DNA of 64,000 nucleotides from Minisyncoccota bacterium. GTDB lineage: Bacteria > Patescibacteriota > Minisyncoccia > Phycocordibacterales > JABAAK01. The notes below the pieces were generated by a model. It was not told the DNA's origin. It saw nothing but the letters and a program-made list of their open reading frames with translations, and searched no databases. The position numbers and the translations under genes are program-made. The stretch is taken from assembly GCA_965222235.1 (NCBI GenBank), contig OZ244939.1:94041-158040 (forward strand), given 5' to 3'. Shown one piece after another: positions 5,367 through 42,151 of this stretch (position 1 is its first letter; each line of letters starts with the position of its first letter).

Positions 5367-7775
5367 TTACTGTCGCCCGAGGATGAGTTTTGGAAGGGAG
5401 AGCGGTTGGCTTTGGTTCCCCGCGCTGTCCGACACCGTCACCGTACAGCCTACGTATTCCCTGCCGGCGATCAGCTCATACGGTATACCGTATCCGCTGT
5501 TCTGTGTCATGAAGCCGAGGCTGCCGTTTCCGCAGGGACCGTCGTAGGCAATCCGCAGCCAGTCGGCCGGCTGTATACCTCCCGCTGTCACCGGAACAAT
5601 AGCACTGTCGGCATCATCAGCGGCAAAGCCGAGCACGGTCGCGGAAGTTCCCGATGTCAATGTCGGAGCATCTGTTTCGCGGACTATGGTGATGACATTT
5701 CTCGCACTGCTTTTTGTGCCGCTGTTGTCGCTGACGGTGAACTTGAACTTCACACGCTTATCATCCTGCTCGCCCACATTGTCTGTGTTTGAACCGGCAA
5801 AGTTAACGGTATAGGTGACGTGCAGGTTGCCGCTGCTGGTGCCGGTGGTGCTGCCCTGAAGATAGTTTATGTGGTTTGTACCGCCCGATGTCACCTCAAT
5901 ATCCACTTTCTCATCATAGTTTGAACTGTTGTACCTGGTATCGTCATCGCTGATCTTTACTCTGAAACTTACCGAGTTTTTCTTCGTGAAAAATATGTTC
6001 TGACCGGGAGCGATTGCGCGCGATTCGTCAAAATGTATCACGCTCACAACCGGTCTGTTTCTGTCTATTGTCGTCGTCTGCACCGCTATTTCCTGCTTCT
6101 GCGGCTCGTGTGTTCGTTCAGAAGCGACTGCGGCAATGCCGGGCGTCGGATTGCCCTCAAATATACTTCCGGTTCCGAGGATGTGAAGCGTGTATCCGTT
6201 ATTATGTGCGCCGTCACTCTTCGTATAGGTAACGGTATCAACGGCGATTCCGTTGGATTTGAGCACCACGGTGTCGCCGGTATTTGTCAGCGATAGGGAG
6301 GCGACGAACAGTTGGCCGGCAAATGACGGATTCTCTATTCTGAATTTCTCCGCGCTGTCGGTGATAACGGCGACATCACCGTGTTCAAGCGCCGTTTCGC
6401 CCGCACCGCCCGAGTCGTACGCAATACTTTTCAGTCCGCCGTCGTCAATAACTAATCCGGAGACTGTGACCGGCACCGTGCCGCTGTTCACTATTTCAAC
6501 CCACTCACTCTCGCCTGATCCGCTGTACTTTATCTCACTTATCTCAACGGTGAGATCGGTGATGCCGGTGATTTGACCGAACGAAGCATAAGCTGTCTGC
6601 TCAAGAAGGTCCGTCACCTTAACACATACATACTTGTCATTGTTCTCAGTCCCGAACAGCACTATTGTTGCGGTGTGTTTCCCGCCGTCAGCCGCGGTTA
6701 CTTTCACCGTTTGTTCCGTTTCCGTTGCCGCGGTATATACCTCTTCCGTTCCGCACGCCGCATCGTGCATTTTGTACGATATATTTTCGGGAGGGGCGCT
6801 CTCGGTGATCCCCACCGTTATCTGTTTTCTTGATGTGTTATCGGTCGGTGATGTAATTGCAAATGCGATAACCGGCGCGACGCGGTCAATATATACCCGT
6901 TTCCCCTGATCGATCAGTGTGCCGTTTTTCAGTTCCTCATCGCCGTTCCTGACGGTATAGGTGATGTTCCCTGACGGGTCGTCCGCAGTGACGGTATAAG
7001 TGAAGGATTTGCTTGTATCAGTTCCGCCGTTCCCGGCAACCATCTCTCTTTGAGAGTTGCCGATGTGCAGCTTGACTGCCGTGCCGCTCGGCAGGTCTCT
7101 CGTGCGGAAGACGTGGAGTGTAATTACAGCATCCGTGTTCAGGAATACCGCGTCGTTAATCTCCTGTTTATTTTTCTGTCCCACCGATGAGGCGACGGCG
7201 ATAGTCGGTTCAACGGCAGTGTATGATTTAATCGGATTCACTTCCACTCTTCCGGGTGTCGCCGGCGCGACGACGAGCTCACCGTCCAGTCCGACATGAA
7301 GTGAAACATCCGTTTTCCCCGTTTGTATTGCGGTATATACGACGCTGTTTATTTCCGTCGTTCCCGTTGCGTCAAACAGCGCAACAGTGCCGTTCGTGTC
7401 AGGAAGATCAAACGCCGCGGTATATATCAAACCGGCATGCCCCGCGTGTCCGGATATAAATACGGAAGCATCTTTGGCAATGATCGCAACCGTCCCGGTT
7501 GTGAGCGTGTTTGCCGTACCGCTGTGTGCGGTTATGGCCAGCTTCTCACCGTCGCCAACCCCGATCTTCAGGGTGGTCAGGTCAATATCACCGCCCGTGT
7601 TAATGATTTCAATATATTCTCCGCCACTTCTCGGATTGTACGCTATCTCCGTTATCTCCACATCACCCGCGCTCTGCGCGTGAGCCGGCGAAGAAAGGTA
7701 TGCGCCGCATACCGCTGTGACCATCACACCTATTGCATATGCGAATCTTGTATGTTTGTTCGGATATTTGTTCAT
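5367..7775 (-). CDS. large secreted surface protein with two LTD domains and Ig-like beta-rich repeats
   Basis: 802 aa. N-terminal signal peptide. LTD motifs VEITEIAYNP...EYIEIIN and VEISEIKYSGSGESEWVEIVN. T/S/G/V-rich beta repeats. Confidence 0.62.
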   Translation of the reverse strand: MNKYPNKHTRFAYAIGVMVTAVCGAYLSSPAHAQSAGDVEITEIAYNPRSGGEYIEIINTGGDIDLTTLKIGVGDGEKLAITAHSGTANTLTTGTVAIIAKDASVFISGHAGHAGLIYTAAFDLPDTNGTVALFDATGTTEINSVVYTAIQTGKTDVSLHVGLDGELVVAPATPGRVEVNPIKSYTAVEPTIAVASSVGQKNKQEINDAVFLNTDAVITLHVFRTRDLPSGTAVKLHIGNSQREMVAGNGGTDTSKSFTYTVTADDPSGNITYTVRNGDEELKNGTLIDQGKRVYIDRVAPVIAFAITSPTDNTSRKQITVGITESAPPENISYKMHDAACGTEEVYTAATETEQTVKVTAADGGKHTATIVLFGTENNDKYVCVKVTDLLEQTAYASFGQITGITDLTVEISEIKYSGSGESEWVEIVNSGTVPVTVSGLVIDDGGLKSIAYDSGGAGETALEHGDVAVITDSAEKFRIENPSFAGQLFVASLSLTNTGDTVVLKSNGIAVDTVTYTKSDGAHNNGYTLHILGTGSIFEGNPTPGIAAVASERTHEPQKQEIAVQTTTIDRNRPVVSVIHFDESRAIAPGQNIFFTKKNSVSFRVKISDDDTRYNSSNYDEKVDIEVTSGGTNHINYLQGSTTGTSSGNLHVTYTVNFAGSNTDNVGEQDDKRVKFKFTVSDNSGTKSSARNVITIVRETDAPTLTSGTSATVLGFAADDADSAIVPVTAGGIQPADWLRIAYDGPCGNGSLGFMTQNSGYGIPYELIAGREYVGCTVTVSDSAGNQSQPLSLPKLILGRQ

Positions 7776-8383
7776 ATTTTTTGAAAAGAGTTTTTTAATT
7801 TCTGCGCGACGAACACTTTTTCATGATAAAGCAAAAACATACGGTATATTCATAAAACATGTTTTCAGTGGAAAACTTTTCACCGGGTTTTTATAAAACT
7901 ACAGGTGTGACGGATTTTTACTTTAAGTTTGGTATGTATAAATCTTATACGAAACGACTTATCTAGTCGTTACTTCATCTCATAGCATTCTACTGTAAGG
8001 GAGGGGGTATGGGCGGTAAGTGTATTTTGGTAGTACAGGGTCACCGTGGAATAATAACTCTTCTCTAAAAATTAACGAAATGAGCATTGCTAACACAGCA
8101 GAGAAAATAATATTCAAAAGTACGGTGATGATTTTCTTGTAAGGTACATCCTTTGTATTTTCTTCTTCTTTGTATCGCCCCTTGATACAAAAAACAGTAG
8201 ACCGGCAATAAGTCTGAGGAGCACCGCGAGTATACCGAGCCATACCCATATATTTCCCTGTTCGCTTTCGTGCGCTCCGCTCCCGCGCCATCTCGCCCAC
8301 CACCTTCCCGCTTACCCGCTTTGCGGGAAGTGGCGGGTTTCATTATTCCAACCATCATTTGGTATACTGTCTATACAAAAGGT

Positions 8384-10077: not shown

Positions 10078-11412
10078 TTGACACGATCGTCCACTTCGCT
10101 AATATCAATAAATCCTCATAAATTGGCAGAAAAAATCGCTAATTCAATAAAGAACCTTGATAGTGACGATAGTCTGGCCATTGGTATTGAAAGTAAGTGG
10201 GGTTCTGGAAAAACATCCTTCGTGAATCTGACACTTGAGAGCTTAAAGGAATCGGATCTTTTAATTATAAAGTTTAATCCTTGGAATTTTTCAGATCAAA
10301 ATGAACTCATCAAAGATTTTTTTAACTCAATTGCAAGAGAGCTGAGTCAGTGTGATGAGGATATAAAAAACAAAAATACTAATAAGTATACCGCAAACCC
10401 CGTTGATTTGATAAGAAGATATTATGTCAAATTACTAAAACGATCAGAAATAACAGTAACGGGATTTAGTTTTTTGTGGTTTAATTTTAGTTTTGGTAAA
10501 AAATCTGAATTTCATGATAGTACTCCATTAGAGAAACAGAAAGAGGAGATTAACGGGACTCTAAAAAACGCAGGGAAACGAATAGTGATTGTTATTGATG
10601 ACATTGACAGATTAGATAAAGAAGAAACGAAGACTGTTTTTAAATTGGTAAAAAATACTGCAAGGTTTAGTAATATAACCTTTCTTCTGACTTATGATAG
10701 AAGAAGAGTGTGTAAGCAAGTGAGTGATGAAGAAGTTGATGGGGAGGAGTACTTGAAGAAAATTATACAAATGAGATTTCCTTTGCCAAAGCCGGAGAAA
10801 CAATACCTGTTCAATATTCTTTTTGCAAGAATTGATTCTGTTATAGATGTGGACAAAAATGATATAGTGCGGTTGCAGCGTCTTTTTCATTCCGGTTTCA
10901 AAAATCTTTTCCCCACCGTTCGTGATATAAAGAGATATATAAACAGCATAAGACTTGATTTGGCGGCGATAGGGAGAGAAGAGATAAATCCTGTTGATTT
11001 TTTGGGTGTTGGAGCCATCAGAGTATTCGCCCCTGCCATCTATCAATCCATGGTTGATGAAAAAGATGCTTTTATCGGCCTTGATAGTGGTTTTATAAAT
11101 GATCCTAACCGAAGTGAAGAGCGGGAAAAGAGAAAAAATATCTGTGAAAACATAATAGCGGAAAAATCTCCCGAAGGATTATCTGATATTGTCAAAACAA
11201 TAATTCATGAACTTTTTCCTCAATGCAGATCTCTTTACTCCAACACACATTATGGTCCTGATTGGGAGTCAGAATGGAGAAAGGAGTTGAGAGTTTGTTC
11301 CAAACATTTTTTTGATAGATATTTCTCACTTTCTGTCCCTTCAACATCTGTCTCAGAAAATACCATAAATGATCTTTTAAGGAATATCAACAGTAGGGGG
11401 AAGATTCACTAA
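10078..11412 (+). CDS. KAP-family P-loop NTPase (N-terminal part)
   Basis: Walker A GIESKWGSGKTSF and the KAP signature IKFNPWNF. Walker B VIVIDDIDRL. Confidence 0.6.
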   Translation: MTRSSTSLISINPHKLAEKIANSIKNLDSDDSLAIGIESKWGSGKTSFVNLTLESLKESDLLIIKFNPWNFSDQNELIKDFFNSIARELSQCDEDIKNKNTNKYTANPVDLIRRYYVKLLKRSEITVTGFSFLWFNFSFGKKSEFHDSTPLEKQKEEINGTLKNAGKRIVIVIDDIDRLDKEETKTVFKLVKNTARFSNITFLLTYDRRRVCKQVSDEEVDGEEYLKKIIQMRFPLPKPEKQYLFNILFARIDSVIDVDKNDIVRLQRLFHSGFKNLFPTVRDIKRYINSIRLDLAAIGREEINPVDFLGVGAIRVFAPAIYQSMVDEKDAFIGLDSGFINDPNRSEEREKRKNICENIIAEKSPEGLSDIVKTIIHELFPQCRSLYSNTHYGPDWESEWRKELRVCSKHFFDRYFSLSVPSTSVSENTINDLLRNINSRGKIH

Positions 11413-12163: not shown

Positions 12164-12441
12164 TGCTCCGCAAAAAGTCTAAAGGTGGGAAAACGAAGCG
12201 AAACAGACACACCGAGCCAAAAAGTGAAAAAATAAAATGGTGGTGCGTAAGCACGCCCGTCTTATTTTTGAACGAGCGAGGTGTTGTCTGTGAAGCGAAG
12301 TGGTACTCGTTATACTACTGAGCGCGTCTCGCGCCTTTCTGAGCGCACGGAGGATTGACACGCAACAGGGTGGAGTGCGGATCCGGAGTAAGCAGAGCGA
12401 TAGGGCGCTGTGGTGTTTGGAGCGTACGAGGTATCTTCATG

Positions 12442-12515
12442 TGCTGAGGGTGGGACTCGAACCCACGACCCTTCGCTCTTCAGGCGAATGCTCTAGCCAA
12501 CTGAGCTACCTCAGC
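12442..12515 (-). tRNA. tRNA-Phe (GAA)
   Basis: Reverse complement GCTGAGGTAGCTCAGTTGGCTAGAGCATTCGCCTGAAGAGCGAAGGGTCGTGGGTTCGAGTCCCACCCTCAGCA. Cloverleaf with anticodon loop CTGAAGA. Confidence 0.85.
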
Positions 12516-33466: not shown

Positions 33467-33571
33467 AACTTCACCCCCTCCGAACCGGGCATCCGGTTCG
33501 GAGGGGTTTCCTTATATCAACGTGTGTATTCCACTTGTCACTTCCCCGCCGTCATATATACTGTTATATAT

Positions 33572-33644
33572 TCCGCGGTAGCTCAGCGGTAGAGCAACCG
33601 GCTGTTAACCGGTAGGTCGCAGGTTCGAATCCCGCCCGCGGAGC
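33572..33644 (+). tRNA. tRNA-Asn (GTT)
   Basis: TCCGCGGTAGCTCAGCGGTAGAGCAACCGGCTGTTAACCGGTAGGTCGCAGGTTCGAATCCCGCCCGCGGAG. Anticodon loop CTGTTAA. CCA follows. Confidence 0.8.
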
Positions 33645-33698
33645 CCAATAGTACAAAGAGAAGAAAAGTATCTTTCTATCCGCGACTTTACCGACAAT

Positions 33699-33902
33699 AT
33701 GAAACGCGAAGCCTACGAAAGACAGAAGGGTTTCTGTGTGAAATGTGAAGATTATTTTGAGATTGAAGAAATGGAGGCTGATCACACTGACCCTTGATAT
33801 GAGGGCGGTAAAACAATTACAGAAAATTGCCAGATGTTGTGTAAAAAGACAGCCGGATTAAAACTAGAAAGTAAAATGAAAAGATTGTTCCCTAGTGTCT
33901 AA
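33699..33902 (+). pseudogene. HNH endonuclease remnant with an in-frame TGA inside the HNH motif
   Basis: MKREAYERQKGFCVKCEDYFEIEEMEADHTDP-(TGA at 33795)-YEGGKTITENCQMLCKK matches C..C...(E)ADHI.P.S.GG.T..N.Q.LC..CN of HNH nucleases. It lies directly after tRNA-Asn. Confidence 0.45.
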
Positions 33903-34284
33903 TACACGAGACATATGACGATGTGTGCAATGGGTTAGAAGTGTATTCAGAAGCGATACATTACGGGAAAATTATTAATGGTGGAATAAAGCATTGTCGC
34001 CATATTTATTATGAAGATATAATGAAAGTTTTGAGTACAGGAAAATATTGGAAAAATATATAACAATATTTTTTATTATTTATCCACCCCTGGTTATGGT
34101 TTCCCCTGGATTTGGTTTGGGTAATGTTTGGGGATTTTGAGGATCACGCCCCTTGGTTATAGTTTCCCCTTGATTTGGTCTTGGTAATACAGAAGAATCA
34201 TCCTTTGACGGTTTTGACGGTTGTGGTTGGGCTGATTTATTATCTTTGGACATAATTAAATAATAGCAGTATATCACAAAAAAT

Positions 34285-34773
34285 CTAAATTATTAAGGAC
34301 AGTATAAATGGAAGTACCAGTAGGAATGAAGCAGCGATGAAAAAATATACTGCCCAACGATATAATAAAACTTTTTTCTCTAAAATACTGTTATTATTAG
34401 TAAAAGCATGTTGAGCGTCACTTATGAGTTGTAAAAGTAAATCTTTTTCAGGCTTTTCTAAATATTCAGGGTATTTCTTAAGATTTACAGAAATTGTTAA
34501 GTATTTTTTAGGGTGAGTTACAATAAGAAGGAAAATCACTGAAACTATAAGTAGCAATAAACCAGACATGCTTGCACAAAGACTTTTTCCACCAAGATTG
34601 TCAATAATAATGGGTACTGAAATAAATGCTGAATATCCAGTCATTAGAGCAATCTCAATTCCTATTAAAGTTGCAGCTTTTCCATCCAAACAATTATCGG
34701 CACTTGATAGGTGATCAATCTTGTTTTTCACTGATTCAAATAAAATTTTAAGCCCGTTATTTTCTTCTTTCAT
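34285..34773 (-). CDS. hypothetical three-TM membrane protein (island 3)
   Basis: 162 aa. Soluble N-terminal about 30 aa, then three hydrophobic helices. AT-rich. Divergent from the ParB-like gene. Confidence 0.4.
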   Translation of the reverse strand: MKEENNGLKILFESVKNKIDHLSSADNCLDGKAATLIGIEIALMTGYSAFISVPIIIDNLGGKSLCASMSGLLLLIVSVIFLLIVTHPKKYLTISVNLKKYPEYLEKPEKDLLLQLISDAQHAFTNNNSILEKKVLLYRWAVYFFIAASFLLVLPFILSLII

Positions 34774-34842
34774 TTAATTTTCACACTTTTATAATGTACA
34801 GTTTAACATAATATTTTTATCCTCTGTTATAATAATACCTAT

Positions 34843-36138
34843 ATGAATACACGGAATAGATGGCCTAAGCAGGATGTGAAACATGATGATATCGTTTTTG
34901 ATACCTATAATCCTCGATTACCTCTCGAGCAGATAGGAATGCTGAATCAGGAAAAACTTTATAATTTCTTGATAGAAAGCGGGGCTGACAGGATAGCGTA
35001 TCAGATGCGTATTGATGGCTTTCATAACAGTGAAATACTAATCGTAGTGAAAGAGGGTAGCAAATTTGTGGTTGTTGACGGCAACAGACGCCTGGCAGCT
35101 TTTCGGTATGCATGTAAAAAAGAATGGGTAGACGGTATTATCACCTTATTGCCCATCACTATCGCTCCGTCCCGGGAAGAAGCCGATCAGGAGATAGTAA
35201 CTAAACATGTCGGCAATCTAAAATCTAATTGGAATTCATTGAATCAATTAAATAAGTTGCAGGAAATTGTTTCAAGATCAAAAGTATCATTGGTTGAAAT
35301 TAGCAGACAACATCCAGCGCTAGGAAAAGAAAAAGGAATAAAAAGAAGATTAAAAAATCTTGCGATATATAATATTATTACTCGGCAACCATGGTTGACT
35401 GAGAAAGAAAAGAACATCCTCAAACAGCGCGGTATTAACATGATTAATCGTTTTTTCACCTCGAAATCCAGCAATGTATTTTTTGATTGGGATGCTATGG
35501 ATTATCCGTTTGATGAATTAGAATTGGAACGAAAAATTAATGACCCCGCGAGCAAGCGTATTATTAAACGGTATATCTTAAACAGGAACACATCAGCACA
35601 AATTAAAGCTTCGGAGGTAGAGAAGATATATCAATCCACAACATCTTCATCAGAATCCGACAAACAAGGCAGAAAGGTTTCTACTCAAAAGAAAACTACA
35701 GAGCGAACAGTTTTGGTGCCGAATGACTGCACCATTACCATAATAAAGCAAGGGAGAATAAAAAATATATACTTGGAACTTAAAAATGATCTACGGGTGG
35801 ATAAAACACCGAATGCGGCTGCAGTACTTTTCAGAGTTTTTATTGAGTTGAGCTTAGATCACTACCTGGAGAAAAAGATGAGGTATATTCCCGGAAGAAA
35901 CGAGAACATTTCTGGAAAGATCACTAAAGTTACGAACTATATGGAAAAAGAAGAAATTGCCAATAAAAACCAACTGAACAATATCAGGGGCGTTGGATCT
36001 GGAAACACTTACTTAAGTATAGAGAATTTTCACGCATATGTACACTCAACAAGAACTTCACCGACGCCGGAGGATATCAAACTGAAGTGGGACAATCTGC
36101 AGGAGTTTTTTGAGATGTTGTGGGATGATGTATCATAA
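34843..36138 (+). CDS. ParB/Sulfiredoxin-fold N-terminal domain protein with large unknown C-terminal region
   Basis: 431 aa. SKFVVVDGNRRLAAFRYA matches the ParB-nuclease DGxxR core. The C-terminal about 300 aa has no recognisable motif. The Dam-like MTase starts 8 nt after its stop. Confidence 0.55.
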   Translation: MNTRNRWPKQDVKHDDIVFDTYNPRLPLEQIGMLNQEKLYNFLIESGADRIAYQMRIDGFHNSEILIVVKEGSKFVVVDGNRRLAAFRYACKKEWVDGIITLLPITIAPSREEADQEIVTKHVGNLKSNWNSLNQLNKLQEIVSRSKVSLVEISRQHPALGKEKGIKRRLKNLAIYNIITRQPWLTEKEKNILKQRGINMINRFFTSKSSNVFFDWDAMDYPFDELELERKINDPASKRIIKRYILNRNTSAQIKASEVEKIYQSTTSSSESDKQGRKVSTQKKTTERTVLVPNDCTITIIKQGRIKNIYLELKNDLRVDKTPNAAAVLFRVFIELSLDHYLEKKMRYIPGRNENISGKITKVTNYMEKEEIANKNQLNNIRGVGSGNTYLSIENFHAYVHSTRTSPTPEDIKLKWDNLQEFFEMLWDDVS

Positions 36139-36145
36139 AAGTAGT

Positions 36146-36955
36146 ATGAAAACACCGCTTAGGTATCCTGGAGGGAAGGCGAAATTCGCTCCATATTTTT
36201 CTAATTTCATAGACGAGATGGGTATTAAAGATGCTATTTTTGTTGAGCCATTCTGCGGTGGTGCGGGTGCGGCGATAAAATTGTTGTTAGCAAGGAAGGT
36301 AAAAAAAATTTATATCAATGATTTTGACAGAAGTATTTATGCATTTTGGCATACCATCCTTAATGATTCAGAAAAAATAATTAAAAAAATCAGAAGGGCC
36401 CCTGTAACCATAGAGCAATTTGATAAGCAGCGACTTATACAAAAAAGGAAAGATTCCGTTGATTTATTTACCTTGGGATTTTCCACCTTTTTTTTGAATC
36501 GTACCGCTTTTTCAGGTATTTTGACCGGTGGTCCGATAGGCGGCAGAGCGCAAAACGGTCCGTATATGTTAGGGTGTCGTTTTAACAAAGAAGATTTGAT
36601 ACAGAGAATACAACTATTGTTCCGTCATAAGAATCAAATAAAGATTTTTAATAAAGATGCGGTTGATTTTTTGGCGATGCTTGTTATAAAAAAACTGCCG
36701 AAATCAAGAACAATATTTTACATCGATCCTCCTTATTTTGAAAAAGGTGTGTACTTGTATAAAAACAGCTATTTAACAGAAGATCATAAAGTGCTGGAAA
36801 ACACACTAAGAAAAACAAAAAAAGCAATTTTTGTTTCTTACGATAATAGAAAAGAAATTAAAGAGATATACTCCTCATGGCAATCTCACATGGTTGATGT
36901 CTCCCATTTTGCCAGGAAATATAAACCAGCTAAGGAAATTATTTTTTACAAATAG
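36146..36955 (+). CDS. Dam-family (D12 class) N6-adenine DNA methyltransferase
   Basis: PLRYPGGK, EPFCGGAGAA (motif I), NRTAFSG, IDPPY (motif IV) in the alpha-class order. Start at ATG 36146 (MKTPLRYPGGK). Confidence 0.8.
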   Translation: MKTPLRYPGGKAKFAPYFSNFIDEMGIKDAIFVEPFCGGAGAAIKLLLARKVKKIYINDFDRSIYAFWHTILNDSEKIIKKIRRAPVTIEQFDKQRLIQKRKDSVDLFTLGFSTFFLNRTAFSGILTGGPIGGRAQNGPYMLGCRFNKEDLIQRIQLLFRHKNQIKIFNKDAVDFLAMLVIKKLPKSRTIFYIDPPYFEKGVYLYKNSYLTEDHKVLENTLRKTKKAIFVSYDNRKEIKEIYSSWQSHMVDVSHFARKYKPAKEIIFYK

Positions 36956-37183
36956 TCATTTCAAAAGATATATAGTGGAAATCTCTATGCTCAAATGGCT
37001 ATTTCTGTACAGGTAATACAGTAATTGGAAAAATCTTCCAACTTATTTTTCATTTTTCGTATTGAGGTGGTGTTGCCGCTTACAATGTATTCCTTGCAAT
37101 TTTACTCTTCAAAAATATCATCAATGGTCATAGTAATACCATTTTTGATTTCAGATAGAACAATTTCTAAAATGTCCCCTCTT

Positions 37184-37999
37184 TTATTTGTTTATTTTCC
37201 ATATATTTTCTTTTAAACTTATTTTACCCTGTTTCTTCAAATTCTGCTGCGCACCTCTAACTAAATGTTTCCATTTTTTACCAAAGTGTTGACCATTTAT
37301 AATCCGATCTATTGTGTCATCACAAATATCCGGATGCGCCCTTCTGATATGTTTATTTAAACTGTCGGTTGACAATCCTTCGTGCTTATCAAGTAGGTAC
37401 AATATAGTATCTGAGAATATTCCATTTACTGTCTTACCCCCTTTTACACGATTTTTCATAAGCAACTCATTGAGTGCGCTATGTTTTCCGTCATCTTTTT
37501 CAATGATCTGCTCAATCCTTTCTGTCATTTCTAAGATCTCACTTAAAAAATTTCTGTCAAAGATATTTCCAAGAGAAAAATATTTCCGCAAATCACCCTG
37601 GATTAATTCAACAGTCTCCGTATCGCTAAACAGCACTCCGTATTCAAGATTGTTATATATCCCGCCACTTGTCAGATTTGCTGATGTAACTATTGCTTTT
37701 GTATTGTCTGTTATATAGATTTTGGCGTGTAAATTTTCCACACTTGATACTTTCACATTTTTAAATTTTTTGAAAATATCGACCATTGAATTTGGATCAG
37801 TAATACCTCTAACGATATTACTACAACTCAAATTTGCAAGAATTGTAACCGTGCAGTTTTTATTACCTGAATTCAATAAAAAATCAACGCCGACCTTGTT
37901 TATGAATGGAGAGCTTATTATTATTTCCTTCCTTGCTCCACTGAGAAAATTCCTAAAATCAGAGGCCCAATTTTTTGCTAATAACCTCGCTTCTGCCAT
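37184..37999 (-). CDS. PLD-family (single HKD) nuclease with C-terminal putative DNA-binding domain
   Basis: NLHAKIYITDNTKAIVTSANLTSGG is the HxK(x)4D(x)6GSxN motif of PLD/Nuc/BfiI-type nucleases. About 110-aa basic C-terminal extension. Convergent with the Dam-like MTase. Confidence 0.65.
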   Translation of the reverse strand: MAEARLLAKNWASDFRNFLSGARKEIIISSPFINKVGVDFLLNSGNKNCTVTILANLSCSNIVRGITDPNSMVDIFKKFKNVKVSSVENLHAKIYITDNTKAIVTSANLTSGGIYNNLEYGVLFSDTETVELIQGDLRKYFSLGNIFDRNFLSEILEMTERIEQIIEKDDGKHSALNELLMKNRVKGGKTVNGIFSDTILYLLDKHEGLSTDSLNKHIRRAHPDICDDTIDRIINGQHFGKKWKHLVRGAQQNLKKQGKISLKENIWKINK

Positions 38000-38320
38000 A
38001 AATGAATTTAATAGTCGTTTTCCCCAACCTTAGCTTTTATTATCACAATCGGGAAAAGTGTACCGTATTCCATTACATTTAGTATACCTTACAATATTAA
38101 ACAACAACCGCAAAAAATAAGGAAATCCGTCCACATATAACCCTGAACAGGAAGATATATGGGCAGATTACTGAAGTCCTCCCCCACCATCACAACCCAT
38201 ATTTTCTTTTTCAATTTGTCCGTCGCCTCACCCATTCAAAAACAGGAAATTCCTGGTGTTATACTAAACTTTATACAAAGGCTATAGATATACAAAATAC
38301 GAAAGCGGTGAAAAATATCT

Positions 38321-38569
38321 CTATTTCTCTATATTTACTCTTCCTCCACCCAAAAAAACAATACACAAATATACCCATAGCCAACCGCCAAGAATCCAAA
38401 ATGTCAACAGGGTTAATATGATGTGGAGTGCGTGGTTAATTGGTTTTTTTACTGAGACAAAATGCTCCGTTTCAGCCGTAATAATATAACCTCTCCGCAG
38501 ATAAGATTGCACTGTTTCCCTTGTATAGGTTTTTTTATTTTTGGCTGGCATATGTAAATAGTATATCAC
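38321..38569 (-). CDS. hypothetical small membrane protein
   Basis: 82 aa with two hydrophobic helices. AT-rich. Weak call. Confidence 0.2.
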   Translation of the reverse strand: MIYYLHMPAKNKKTYTRETVQSYLRRGYIITAETEHFVSVKKPINHALHIILTLLTFWILGGWLWVYLCIVFLGGGRVNIEK

Positions 38570-39284
38570 CTTTTATAACTTAACACGAAAGGAAATCCGA
38601 CTTTGTCCTCAAAACAATACACGAACAAATTTCTTGATATTCCCAAACCTTTCACCACCATTTTCTTTTTCAATCTCTTTTCGCCGCCGTTTTGCGCTTC
38701 ACGCGATTTTAATCGGCAAAAGAAAATGGATACTCACAACAACAATGTTATGTGTGTTGCTCTCTGCCACGGGGAGCGGAGCGCACGGATGGGTTGGTAT
38801 GAGCGGAGCGAATACGAGCCCACATTGAGGCGAGACGATTATCTGGCGACACTTTTGGGTTGGGGTTAAAGCTCTGGGGCGGATTGAGCGTGCGAGGTGT
38901 CGTCGGTGCATTGTCGCTCAAATTTCAACACTATCCCACCCTGAGAGCCCAATGGTAAAAGACGACACACCCCCGCCCTGCTTCCGCAGATATTGCTGAT
39001 AGTATTCCTCCGCTTTTAAAACTCGATCACGGGCAGTATCTCCGTTACAGAGGAATCCAATGTTTACAAAAGAAGATATTGGCGGAATACACCGCCTCGC
39101 GCCAGAGCAAGAAATGCGGTATCTTTGAAATCAGTGTGGAGGTGTGCGTACCGATCATTAAATCTCTTTCCATCTCGTTATCAAAAAGGGATCCCTATGG
39201 TCATCTCTGGAATCTGATCAAGGAATCTCAAATTGATGATGAATCCGTTGAAAACATACCCCTCTATGATTGACGAGATATTGT

Positions 39285-39970: not shown

Positions 39971-40206
39971 ATATCGTGCCGCAACCATCGCTTCCCGCAT
40001 ATGACCGGCAACGTGCCGATGTCGAAACAATACCATCAGCAATATCTGCTGAAGCAGGGCGGGGTGTGGGGTGTGCGAAATCCCCCCTTTCTCCTATGTA
40101 TACCAAAGTTTAGACGCTATCCCGATCTCAGTGGCCGGAAAGTGAGTGCGTACAACACTTTTCTTTTTGTGGTATATACTGAAAGTATTAGCAATTAAAA
40201 TAAATT

Positions 40207-40509: not shown

Positions 40510-40630
40510 CAAAGAGCAGCAAGGAAAATAGGAGGTGGAGATTGGGGCGGCAGAGTGAAGCACACAGACACCATCCCGCCCGAAGAGGACAAACGGTACA
40601 CACTCGCTATTATATAACAGCATACCTTTA

Positions 40631-41311
40631 TCATCTATTTCTAGGATAAGGATACCAGGGCCAAATATCAAATTTGCTACGGTGTTCTTTGAGAATAATA
40701 CTCGCTAGGTGATTTCTGTTTTCTGAAATAAATGACTCATTACCATTTGCATTTCCCTTCTCACAAATTAATCCAGTGACTATGTCAGTCAACTGCATCA
40801 AGGAGTTTATACGAGAATCACAAGGCTGAAAATGTTCTATTTCACAATCCAAATACCGTTCAATATAACTCCTGGTCTTCTGCCTCCACTTTTCATCCCT
40901 TGATTGTCTGCTTTCCTGAAATTGGTCAAATAAAATATGCAACTTACTTGGATTCACTTCCTTCCGTAACTCTCCTCTAACAGCATTTCTGCTAATAAGT
41001 AAATACATAAATTTTAATTGTAGCTCCTCAGTAACCTTTTGTTCATCCAATTTCTTTGTATCTATAACAATGAAACGGAAAAATGCATTCATATCAGAGA
41101 TTGCTTTTATAAATTCCTTATAAAAACACATAATATCATCCGAGGTATGATCACTGACTTTTTCCCATTTTACCTCTCCCCAACACTTAAAACGCAATCG
41201 CAATTCAGAAACATGCCTTTCAAAATCTGAAACACATTCCTTCGGAGCCCAAACAGAACCCAACACAAAGAAACGCTTGTTAATACCAGATTCATCACAG
41301 GTAACAAACAT
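40631..41311 (-). CDS. DUF3800-like hypothetical protein (island 4)
   Basis: 226 aa. N-terminal TCDESG...FVLGSVW resembles the start of the DUF3800 family. AT-rich. Confidence 0.3.
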   Translation of the reverse strand: MFVTCDESGINKRFFVLGSVWAPKECVSDFERHVSELRLRFKCWGEVKWEKVSDHTSDDIMCFYKEFIKAISDMNAFFRFIVIDTKKLDEQKVTEELQLKFMYLLISRNAVRGELRKEVNPSKLHILFDQFQESRQSRDEKWRQKTRSYIERYLDCEIEHFQPCDSRINSLMQLTDIVTGLICEKGNANGNESFISENRNHLASIILKEHRSKFDIWPWYPYPRNR

Positions 41312-42151
41312 ACCAATACATATACATAAAAACTAAGAAAGCTTGCCCTTCAGACTATTTATGTTTTTTTGATAGGAATCCTCTGCGGGACCAAATATCT
41401 TAATGTTCTCAATTTCCCTGTCAACAAAGTCCCGTAATATTCTCTTTTCTCTTTCAGAAACCTCAAGATTCCCTCTTTTAGAAAACCATTTTTTCATATA
41501 CAAAACATGACTTATTAATAGTATAAGTATGCCATCACCATATGTCAATGAGACATATCCACAACACAAAACTATACTGGTCAACCCTAAATGACGAAGC
41601 AAATACTATTGATGCCCATACCTTAAGTAGTGAGGAGACAACAAGCGGAAAATTATCCTCACTTCAGAACTCTTTTTTAAATATTGATAACGTTGATTCT
41701 CATATAAAAAGAAGTATACTGACTATAACGAAGTAGAATTATGTTTGGAATAAAACACATACTCCGTATGGGCAGCACCCAGAAAAACGTTTCCGAAAGG
41801 ATGCAGGATGATTTGATGTATAAATTTATTCACATGTCTTCGCGGGAGCACAAAAAATTTATGAAAAAAATTATAAGAGGCGCTACAAAGAGACAAATAG
41901 AAACTCTCAAGAAAGCAGCGGGTATGAAAAAGATGTAAGCACTTCATCTAGACATCTCTACACCGTGTCATAGACAGCGCAACAACTTCTTCCGGAGCGG
42001 GAAGATTCCCGTCATTCTTAAAAAAATCTTTCTTATCCACCCGGACTCGTTTTTCATTACCGCTGCGCAATGTCTCCCCATGTTGTTGTCAGAAGAACAT
42101 TGAAAATGGTATATTGTCCGTGGGCTTCCCGCCACACAACAGGAGAGTGCT

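Follow-up and report, generated by a model that had tools for sequence, protein, structure and literature searches.

The window considered here, i.e., the whole stretch of DNA analysed, covers 64,000 nucleotides of a Minisyncoccota bacterium (assembly GCA_965222235.1, contig OZ244939.1, positions 94,041 to 158,040) and contains an AT-rich island which begins at the 3' end of a tRNA-Asn gene. Two adjacent genes of this island, hereafter A and B (Table 1), very probably constitute a two-gene defence system of the PD-λ-5 type, composed of a ParB/HEPN protein and a DNA methyltransferase; in the same reading, the other genes, which encode a nuclease of the PLD superfamily, a protein with three transmembrane (TM) segments and the remnant of an HNH endonuclease, are separate cargo. 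The core is a known, experimentally validated system and hence no discovery in itself; its presence here widens the range of PD-λ-5 to uncultivated lineages represented by small contigs of genome scale (641 kb in the present case, 647-831 kb for circular ones in relatives), whose size suggests a reduced-genome lineage, and the pair is shown to behave as a self-contained cassette of ~2.5 kb. The fold-level evidence for a non-canonical HEPN domain in protein A, devoid of the Rx4-6H motif and provided with the invariant residues E312, R331, E335 and H401, bears on the mechanism of PD-λ-5, and two neighbours are possibly of interest on their own account, namely a PLD-winged-helix nuclease whose methyltransferase partners are decaying and a cyclase-less PycTM-like gene accompanied by a conserved peptide.

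Identity and conservation of the gene pair

The assignment is based on the PADLOC models: protein A is matched by 16 models of PD-Lambda-5_A, the best being PDLC03998 (1.9e-53, 179.9 bits), and protein B is matched by PD-Lambda-5_B (PDLC04018, 9.4e-99) over residues 2-268 of 269. A preliminary description, made from the sequence letters, had held that the combination of a ParB-like protein, a Dam-type methyltransferase and a PLD protein, with or without the TM protein, matches no named system; the first two are in fact PD-Lambda-5 A and B. The Dam-class assignment of the methyltransferase made on that occasion is borne out by the Pfam family MethyltransfD12 (1.7e-23) and by the retention of the catalytic DPPY motif (residue 194); the protein also displays a glycine-rich EPFCGGAG loop. 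The two genes are adjacent and co-oriented, the ATG of B (36146) being located 7 nt past the stop codon of A.

PD-λ-5 is one of the 21 systems identified by functional selection in E. coli, where it conferred broad phage protection, protected against T-even phages and could be cloned only in a host without mrr; in Table S1 of the same study it is listed as "ParB/HEPN, methyltransferase", validated and giving no escape plaques, and it was seen by its authors as a compacted system combining restriction-modification (R-M) and abortive infection (Vassallo et al. 2022, PMC9519451). As in the characterised pair of the E. coli ECOR7 prophage, the window holds two genes, the first for a ParB/HEPN protein and the second for a D12-class adenine methyltransferase, in the same order and orientation; the differences are to be found in the location (a tRNA-Asn island instead of a prophage), in the host (an uncultivated bacterium represented by a ~641-kb contig) and in the length of protein A (431 residues as compared to about 440-490). 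A distant DNA search for the E. coli PD-λ-5 with a Pseudomonas member of the family reached a different system of the P2 hotspot, composed of a Dam methylase and an AAA ATPase, and was discarded.

Conservation was analysed over 83 loci containing family A, 80 of which come from a genome scan with one representative per species and three (L001-L003) from metagenome look-ups; the scan, on which the co-occurrence of PLD genes with PD-λ-5 was also assessed, gave at least 390 matches, of which the 80 best were retained. A D12 methyltransferase on the same strand is found directly downstream of A in 80 of the 83 loci, the remaining three ending at a contig edge, and the loci are distributed among Bacteroidota, Patescibacteria, Proteobacteria, Chloroflexota, Planctomycetota and Acidobacteriota, with the addition of one archaeon. 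No such constancy is seen for the neighbours: in the 82 loci other than L001, relatives of the PLD protein are absent from the 10 kb on either side (0/82; phmmer and a profile hidden Markov model of the PLD family), as are relatives of the TM protein and of the small open reading frames (ORFs), and no cyclase was found near other family-A loci; in the opposite direction, family-A genes or D12 methyltransferases occur in none of 85 PLD-family loci. In the close relatives L002 and L003, A and B are present and the PLD and TM genes are absent. The order A-B-PLD is found again in L001, a short contig whose sequence is identical to that of the window (100% over 2654 nt) and which probably belongs to the same organism.

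Table 1. Features of the island, with the sites of the PycTM-like module and of the junction elements in the window and in related loci
Feature	Position	Strand	Remarks
tRNA-Asn(GTT)	33571..33647 (ARAGORN); 33572-33643 (Rfam, 70.6 bits)	+	Integration site of the island
HNH endonuclease, pseudogene remnant	33648..33902	+	N-terminus truncated at the tRNA; in-frame TGA 33795-33797
Small hydrophilic peptide gene	34080..34277	-	Likely start ATG at 34253, ~57 aa
3-TM PycTM-like membrane protein	34285..34773	-	162 aa; without cyclase
Gene A, probable PD-λ-5 component A	34843..36138	+	431 aa; predicted effector
Gene B, probable PD-λ-5 component B	36146..36955	+	D12-class (Dam-family) N6-adenine DNA methyltransferase, 269 aa
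Degraded remnant of a ~90-aa ORF	36991..37191	-	ORF found downstream of part of the PLD-winged-helix genes elsewhere
Single-HKD (PLD-superfamily) nuclease with C-terminal winged helix	37184..37999	-	271 aa
Small membrane protein	38321..38569	-	82 aa; role unknown; phrog_2697 at 3.4e-13
Right-hand junction element	38740..38990	unstranded	~250 nt; homologous elements in L090, L002
PycTM-like + peptide module, window	34080-34773	-
PycTM-like + peptide module, L090	7001-7700
PycTM-like + peptide module, L093	3379-3979
PycTM-like + peptide module, L096	5001-5487
Junction-element sites, window	33629-33656, 38740-38990, 40040-40160, 40573-40592
Junction-element sites, L090	5260-5500, 6166-6400
Junction-element sites, L002	4700-4960, 7215-7480

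The tRNA-Asn island and its cassettes

The island was first described as an AT-rich segment which directly follows tRNA-Asn and holds all of the listed genes, and this is confirmed by ARAGORN, by Rfam (where the tRNA is the sole match), by the GC profile and by the ORF list: GC is 0.30-0.40 from ~33650 to ~38600 and 0.50-0.59 outside, with values of 0.55-0.59 before the drop. The HNH remnant noted at its start abuts the tRNA gene as a pseudogene and is recognised by Pfam HNH (2.9e-8) in a conceptual translation of the frame 33648-33899 in which the TGA is read as Trp; the defence context attributed to this tRNA-linked island is likewise upheld. A scan of promoters and terminators gave nothing above chance.

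The left border repeat (33629-33656) coincides with the 3' end of tRNA-Asn. The 20-mer of this end (33629-33648) recurs at 38933 and 40573 with 16 of 20 positions conserved, the chance expectation being ~0.15 copies per window (three matches over 20 shuffles of the window). The degenerate copy at 38933-38952 is part of the right-hand junction element; elements of this kind, ~250 nt long, start with the tRNA-Asn 3'-end copy and finish in CCTCCGTGCGCTC, and the one considered here also carries the motif CATCCGTGCGCTC at 38779-38791. A partial end of a junction element (CCTCCGTGCGCTC) is also found at 12341-12399 of the window, ~40 nt from tRNA-Phe (12441-12515), and could be the trace of another integration site linked to a tRNA gene.

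In relatives, junction elements separate the cassettes, with two copies in L090 and at least two in L002. In the latter locus the A-B pair stands by itself between two junction elements and adjoins a Tsp45I R-M cassette (restriction endonuclease, N6_N4 methyltransferase and a 315-aa ORF), flanked in turn by perfect inverted repeats of 374 nt (7261-7634 and 10997-11370); inversion or a recent duplication of this segment is conceivable. In L090 the tRNA-Asn island is smaller, extends from the tRNA gene to a perfect 28-nt copy of the border repeat and contains only a recombinase remnant and the module formed by the PycTM-like gene and its peptide gene, and is devoid of A, B and the PLD gene. The L090 module (6950-7953) is 97% identical in DNA to positions 33813-34824 of the window, while the flanking MreB DNA is only 66% identical; at the level of sequence, this difference indicates a recent horizontal transfer of the PycTM cassette between distinct lineages. 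A large serine recombinase accompanies the array as a complete gene in L002 (512 aa, abutting tRNA-Asn) and as a remnant in L090, and is absent from the window. From the contents of the L090 and L002 islands it follows that the locus is a variable array of defence cassettes, of which PD-λ-5 represents one self-contained unit.

Architecture of protein A and proposed mechanism

Searches of protein A against Pfam and NCBIfam, carried out with the whole or split sequence at E<=10, returned nothing convincing (the best matches being DUF4145 at 0.095 and Tox-REase-2 at 0.22), and Pfam ParBc went undetected even at this threshold; the domain calls therefore rest on a fold search with an AlphaFold2 model, obtained from a 40-sequence alignment with a mean predicted local distance difference test (pLDDT) value of 87.8. 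A comparison of the family-A profile with PDB sequences gave spurious matches to designed proteins only. According to the fold search, the protein consists of a ParB/Srx-fold domain at the N-terminus, a central helical part and, at the C-terminus (~290-431), an HEPN domain of a non-canonical kind. The first domain is matched by PadC (9.1), the N-terminal domain of pNOB8 ParB (9.0), KorB (8.8), sulfiredoxin (7.2) and Spo0J (6.3), the last one by Roquin HEPN (9.9), AF0298 (9.7), sacsin HEPN (9.5) and HEPN toxins (8.5-8.8). The preliminary description had assigned a ParB-nuclease core to this protein; the ParB/Srx part of the claim stands at the level of the fold and has no counterpart in Pfam ParBc, and the C-terminal HEPN domain had gone unseen. 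Protein A carries the sequence VVVDGNRRLA, whose GNRR (residues 80-83) is invariant in the family; the complete set of invariant residues includes G80, N81, R82, R83, H122, W130, R203, E312, L313, R331, F333, E335, H401 and P407, the polar ones in the HEPN domain being E312, R331, E335 and H401.

Among phages and plasmids, only partial relatives of protein A were found by tblastn. One of them is encoded by Escherichia phage vB_EcoM-12474III (L097, 3459-6495), at the defence hotspot of P2, which is located between the genes for portal and replication, and corresponds to the N-terminal half of protein A; this gene, labelled by RefSeq as 'ParB N-terminal domain-containing protein', is followed by one for a 330-aa hypothetical protein and by a convergent DNA methyltransferase gene. 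This layout is akin to that of PD-λ-5 without being the same, and perhaps represents a variant of it, or one in which A is split.

As to the mechanism, the Dam-family (D12) methyltransferase B would mark the host's own DNA, a role proposed because the E. coli PD-λ-5 needed a Δmrr host; by analogy with the published system, the pair of the window would provide phage defence and its methyltransferase would be active. Protein A would be the effector, in which a ParB/Srx domain, acting as an NTP-binding and/or DNA-nicking module with its invariant GNRR, is joined to an HEPN fold; indeed, proteins of the ParB/Srx type include both NTPases and nucleases (PMC10853773), and ParB-HEPN fusions as well as operons of HEPN, ParB and methylase genes have been catalogued, together with a PrrC-type model for HEPN proteins linked to R-M systems (Anantharaman et al. 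2013). By analogy with PrrC/EcoprrI, the ParB part might sense or attack unmarked incoming DNA, and the HEPN part might then add a second, back-up activity, probably directed at RNA or otherwise abortive. The absence of escape plaques and the protection against T-even phages reported for PD-λ-5 suggest more than plain restriction. With PrrC/EcoprrI and the other R-M-linked HEPN systems the pair shares the coupling of a DNA-modification or restriction module to an HEPN effector; it differs from PrrC/EcoprrI in having neither an ABC ATPase nor hsdMSR, and in an HEPN domain which forms part of a ParB fusion, instead of being a separate protein, and is without Rx4-6H.

A number of observations weigh against the assignment to PD-λ-5, against the mechanism just outlined or against the separation of the pair from its neighbours. 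The proteins of the window are distant from the characterised PD-λ-5 members, to which they were compared by profile, and identity to most of the family is 23-30%; moreover, the literature offers no mechanism for PD-λ-5. The C-terminal domain of protein A contains no Rx4-6H motif, nor does any of the 40 aligned members have one at the corresponding site, and RNase activity of the HEPN domain is for this reason not assured; as for the ParB domain, it may work as an NTP switch and not as a nuclease. Finally, the PycTM module, the pair and the PLD gene follow one another in the window with no junction element in between, and all three units, or A, B and the PLD gene, could conceivably have been acquired as one piece, a joint acquisition supported by no other genome.

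The rival which fares best retains the pair and changes its purpose: A and B would be mainly a selfish addiction cassette of the toxin-antitoxin kind, stabilising the island, with the methyltransferase guarding against a ParB-HEPN toxin and with defence as a side effect at most. Classical R-M pairs can act as addiction cassettes, the pair behaves in L002 as a self-contained mobile cassette of 2.5 kb, and its hosts include organisms whose genomes are very small, with contigs of 641 and 647 kb; on the other hand, the E. coli homologue gave strong and broad phage protection, and the two roles are compatible. Addiction as the main role is unlikely.

The neighbouring genes and the readings that involve them

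The recognition of the PLD gene product as a single-HKD nuclease was correct, as indicated by Pfam PLDc_2 (1.4e-11), by the invariance of the catalytic H, K and D and by the nuclease fold. The family comprises at least 499 relatives of ~285 residues in archaea and bacteria, 45-65% identical over the full length; H91, K93, D98, S106 and N108 are invariant and the C-terminal region is also highly conserved. In the structural model (pLDDT 89.3) the single-HKD nuclease domain is followed by a winged-helix domain; what had been described as a basic C-terminal extension does exist, and folds as a domain of its own. The nuclease domain is matched by Nuc (14.7), NucT (14.4), SauUSI (13.7), Zucchini (13.6), NgoAVII (12.6) and BfiI (11.2), and the combination of this fold with a winged helix makes a DNA-directed nuclease likely. 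Compared with Nuc, NucT, BfiI, NgoAVII and SauUSI, the protein has the same single-HKD fold with the catalytic H-x-K-x4-D, whereas its C-terminal domain is a winged helix instead of a B3-like or helicase domain, and it is usually solitary, the occasional partners being an N6_N4 methyltransferase fragment and the ~90-aa ORF. DISARM was also considered and rejected: the PLD protein matches a DrmC-like model (7e-16), and no other Drm component was found by PADLOC among the island proteins.

The members of this PLD family are mostly solitary, and none was found in the plasmids and viral contigs searched. Of 74 loci, 19 have the ~90-aa ORF immediately after the PLD gene, and an ORF of an N6_N4-class methyltransferase (Pfam, 1e-28) adjoins the PLD gene in 14 of 52, nearly always as a fragment of 57-181 residues; this juxtaposition of a conserved nuclease with decaying methyltransferases was noted in the set L084-L088 and L099-L178. 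In the window, the remnant of the ~90-aa ORF, whose translation aligns by eye with the 99-aa ORF of L084, has no start codon and an in-frame stop near 37102-37104, and no methyltransferase remnant was found beside the PLD gene. This situation, a PLD gene without N6_N4 methyltransferase and with a degraded partner ORF, is the starting point of a further reading, according to which the nuclease has been recruited under the protection of the Dam-class methyltransferase of PD-λ-5, so that a single methyltransferase would serve two effectors, the ParB-HEPN protein and the HKD nuclease, in one composite system; we consider it very unlikely.

Only a slender chance is left to the novel module of three or four genes which the preliminary description had put forward, in which the products of A, B, the PLD gene and the TM gene would act together. 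It is true that the four genes share one island segment undivided by a junction element, that PADLOC finds defence-type domains in all four and that the order A-B-PLD is seen also in L001, although this sequence is identical and probably from the same organism. However, each gene has a separate conserved partner, L002 and L003 hold A and B without the PLD or TM genes, L090 holds the TM module without the others, and the trio is co-conserved in no other genome (0/82 and 0/85), a result which that description itself had named as refuting the idea.

Its other proposal, a Type II R-M system with the PLD nuclease as restriction enzyme, the Dam-class methyltransferase as its cognate enzyme and the ParB-like protein as an accessory, is more doubtful still. 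The PLD domain does resemble the nuclease domains of the restriction enzymes NgoAVII, BfiI and SauUSI, the model provides the protein with a predicted DNA-binding winged helix, and the gene is convergent to that of the methyltransferase at a distance of 228 nt; against this, the D12 methyltransferase is found in 0 of 85 PLD-family loci and the PLD gene in 0 of 82 other loci of family A and its methyltransferase, the methyltransferase adjoining the PLD family elsewhere is of a different class (N6_N4_Mtase), and the universal partner of the D12 methyltransferase is the ParB-HEPN protein (80/83). Least probable of all is that the 431-aa protein serves as a ParB in the partition of a chromosome or plasmid, or as a regulator of the ParB type, beside an orphan Dam methylase: the ParB/Srx fold, the resemblance of GNRR to ParB box II and the RefSeq label of the phage relative would agree with it, but there is no ParA among the island ORFs, the C-terminal domain is HEPN and not a ParB dimerisation domain, Pfam ParBc gives no match, the partnership with the methyltransferase is constant across loci and the family is a validated defence system.

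The call of a three-TM protein was accurate, hydrophobic segments being found at residues 39-57, 62-92 and 135-162. The protein resembles the PycTM effectors of Pycsar systems (PADLOC PycTM, 9.1e-8), its relatives carry a precomputed match to PF18967, and its own score with this Pfam family (PycTM) is below the cut-off (12.3 bits vs 27.2). Unlike in Pycsar, no PycC cyclase is present at any locus examined, i.e., among the island ORFs of the window and in L090-L096, and a complete Pycsar system was rejected, as there is no cyclase in the window or beside the relatives; furthermore, a small hydrophilic ORF of 44-57 residues comes after the gene in every case (window, L090, L092, L093 and L096). 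This ORF, homologues of which stand directly after the PycTM-like genes of L092, L093 and L096, ends in LPKPN(Q/P)GE(T/M)(I/V)T(K/R)GG, a motif present twice in the window copy. In L093-L095 the module is located directly after a pair formed by an Eco47II restriction endonuclease and a C5 methyltransferase. The PycTM-like gene and the peptide gene look like an undescribed two-gene module, which is independent of PD-λ-5.

Among the remaining features, the 82-aa protein encoded near the right-hand end of the island has no Pfam match and is not kept beside PLD genes elsewhere. A second AT-rich patch (40600-41900) follows another copy of the tRNA 3' end and contains, on the minus strand, a gene for a DUF3800 protein (40631-41311), with matches to PDC-M04A, a candidate system of PADLOC (1.2e-22), and to phrog_3732; the patch may be a further defence cassette of the array.

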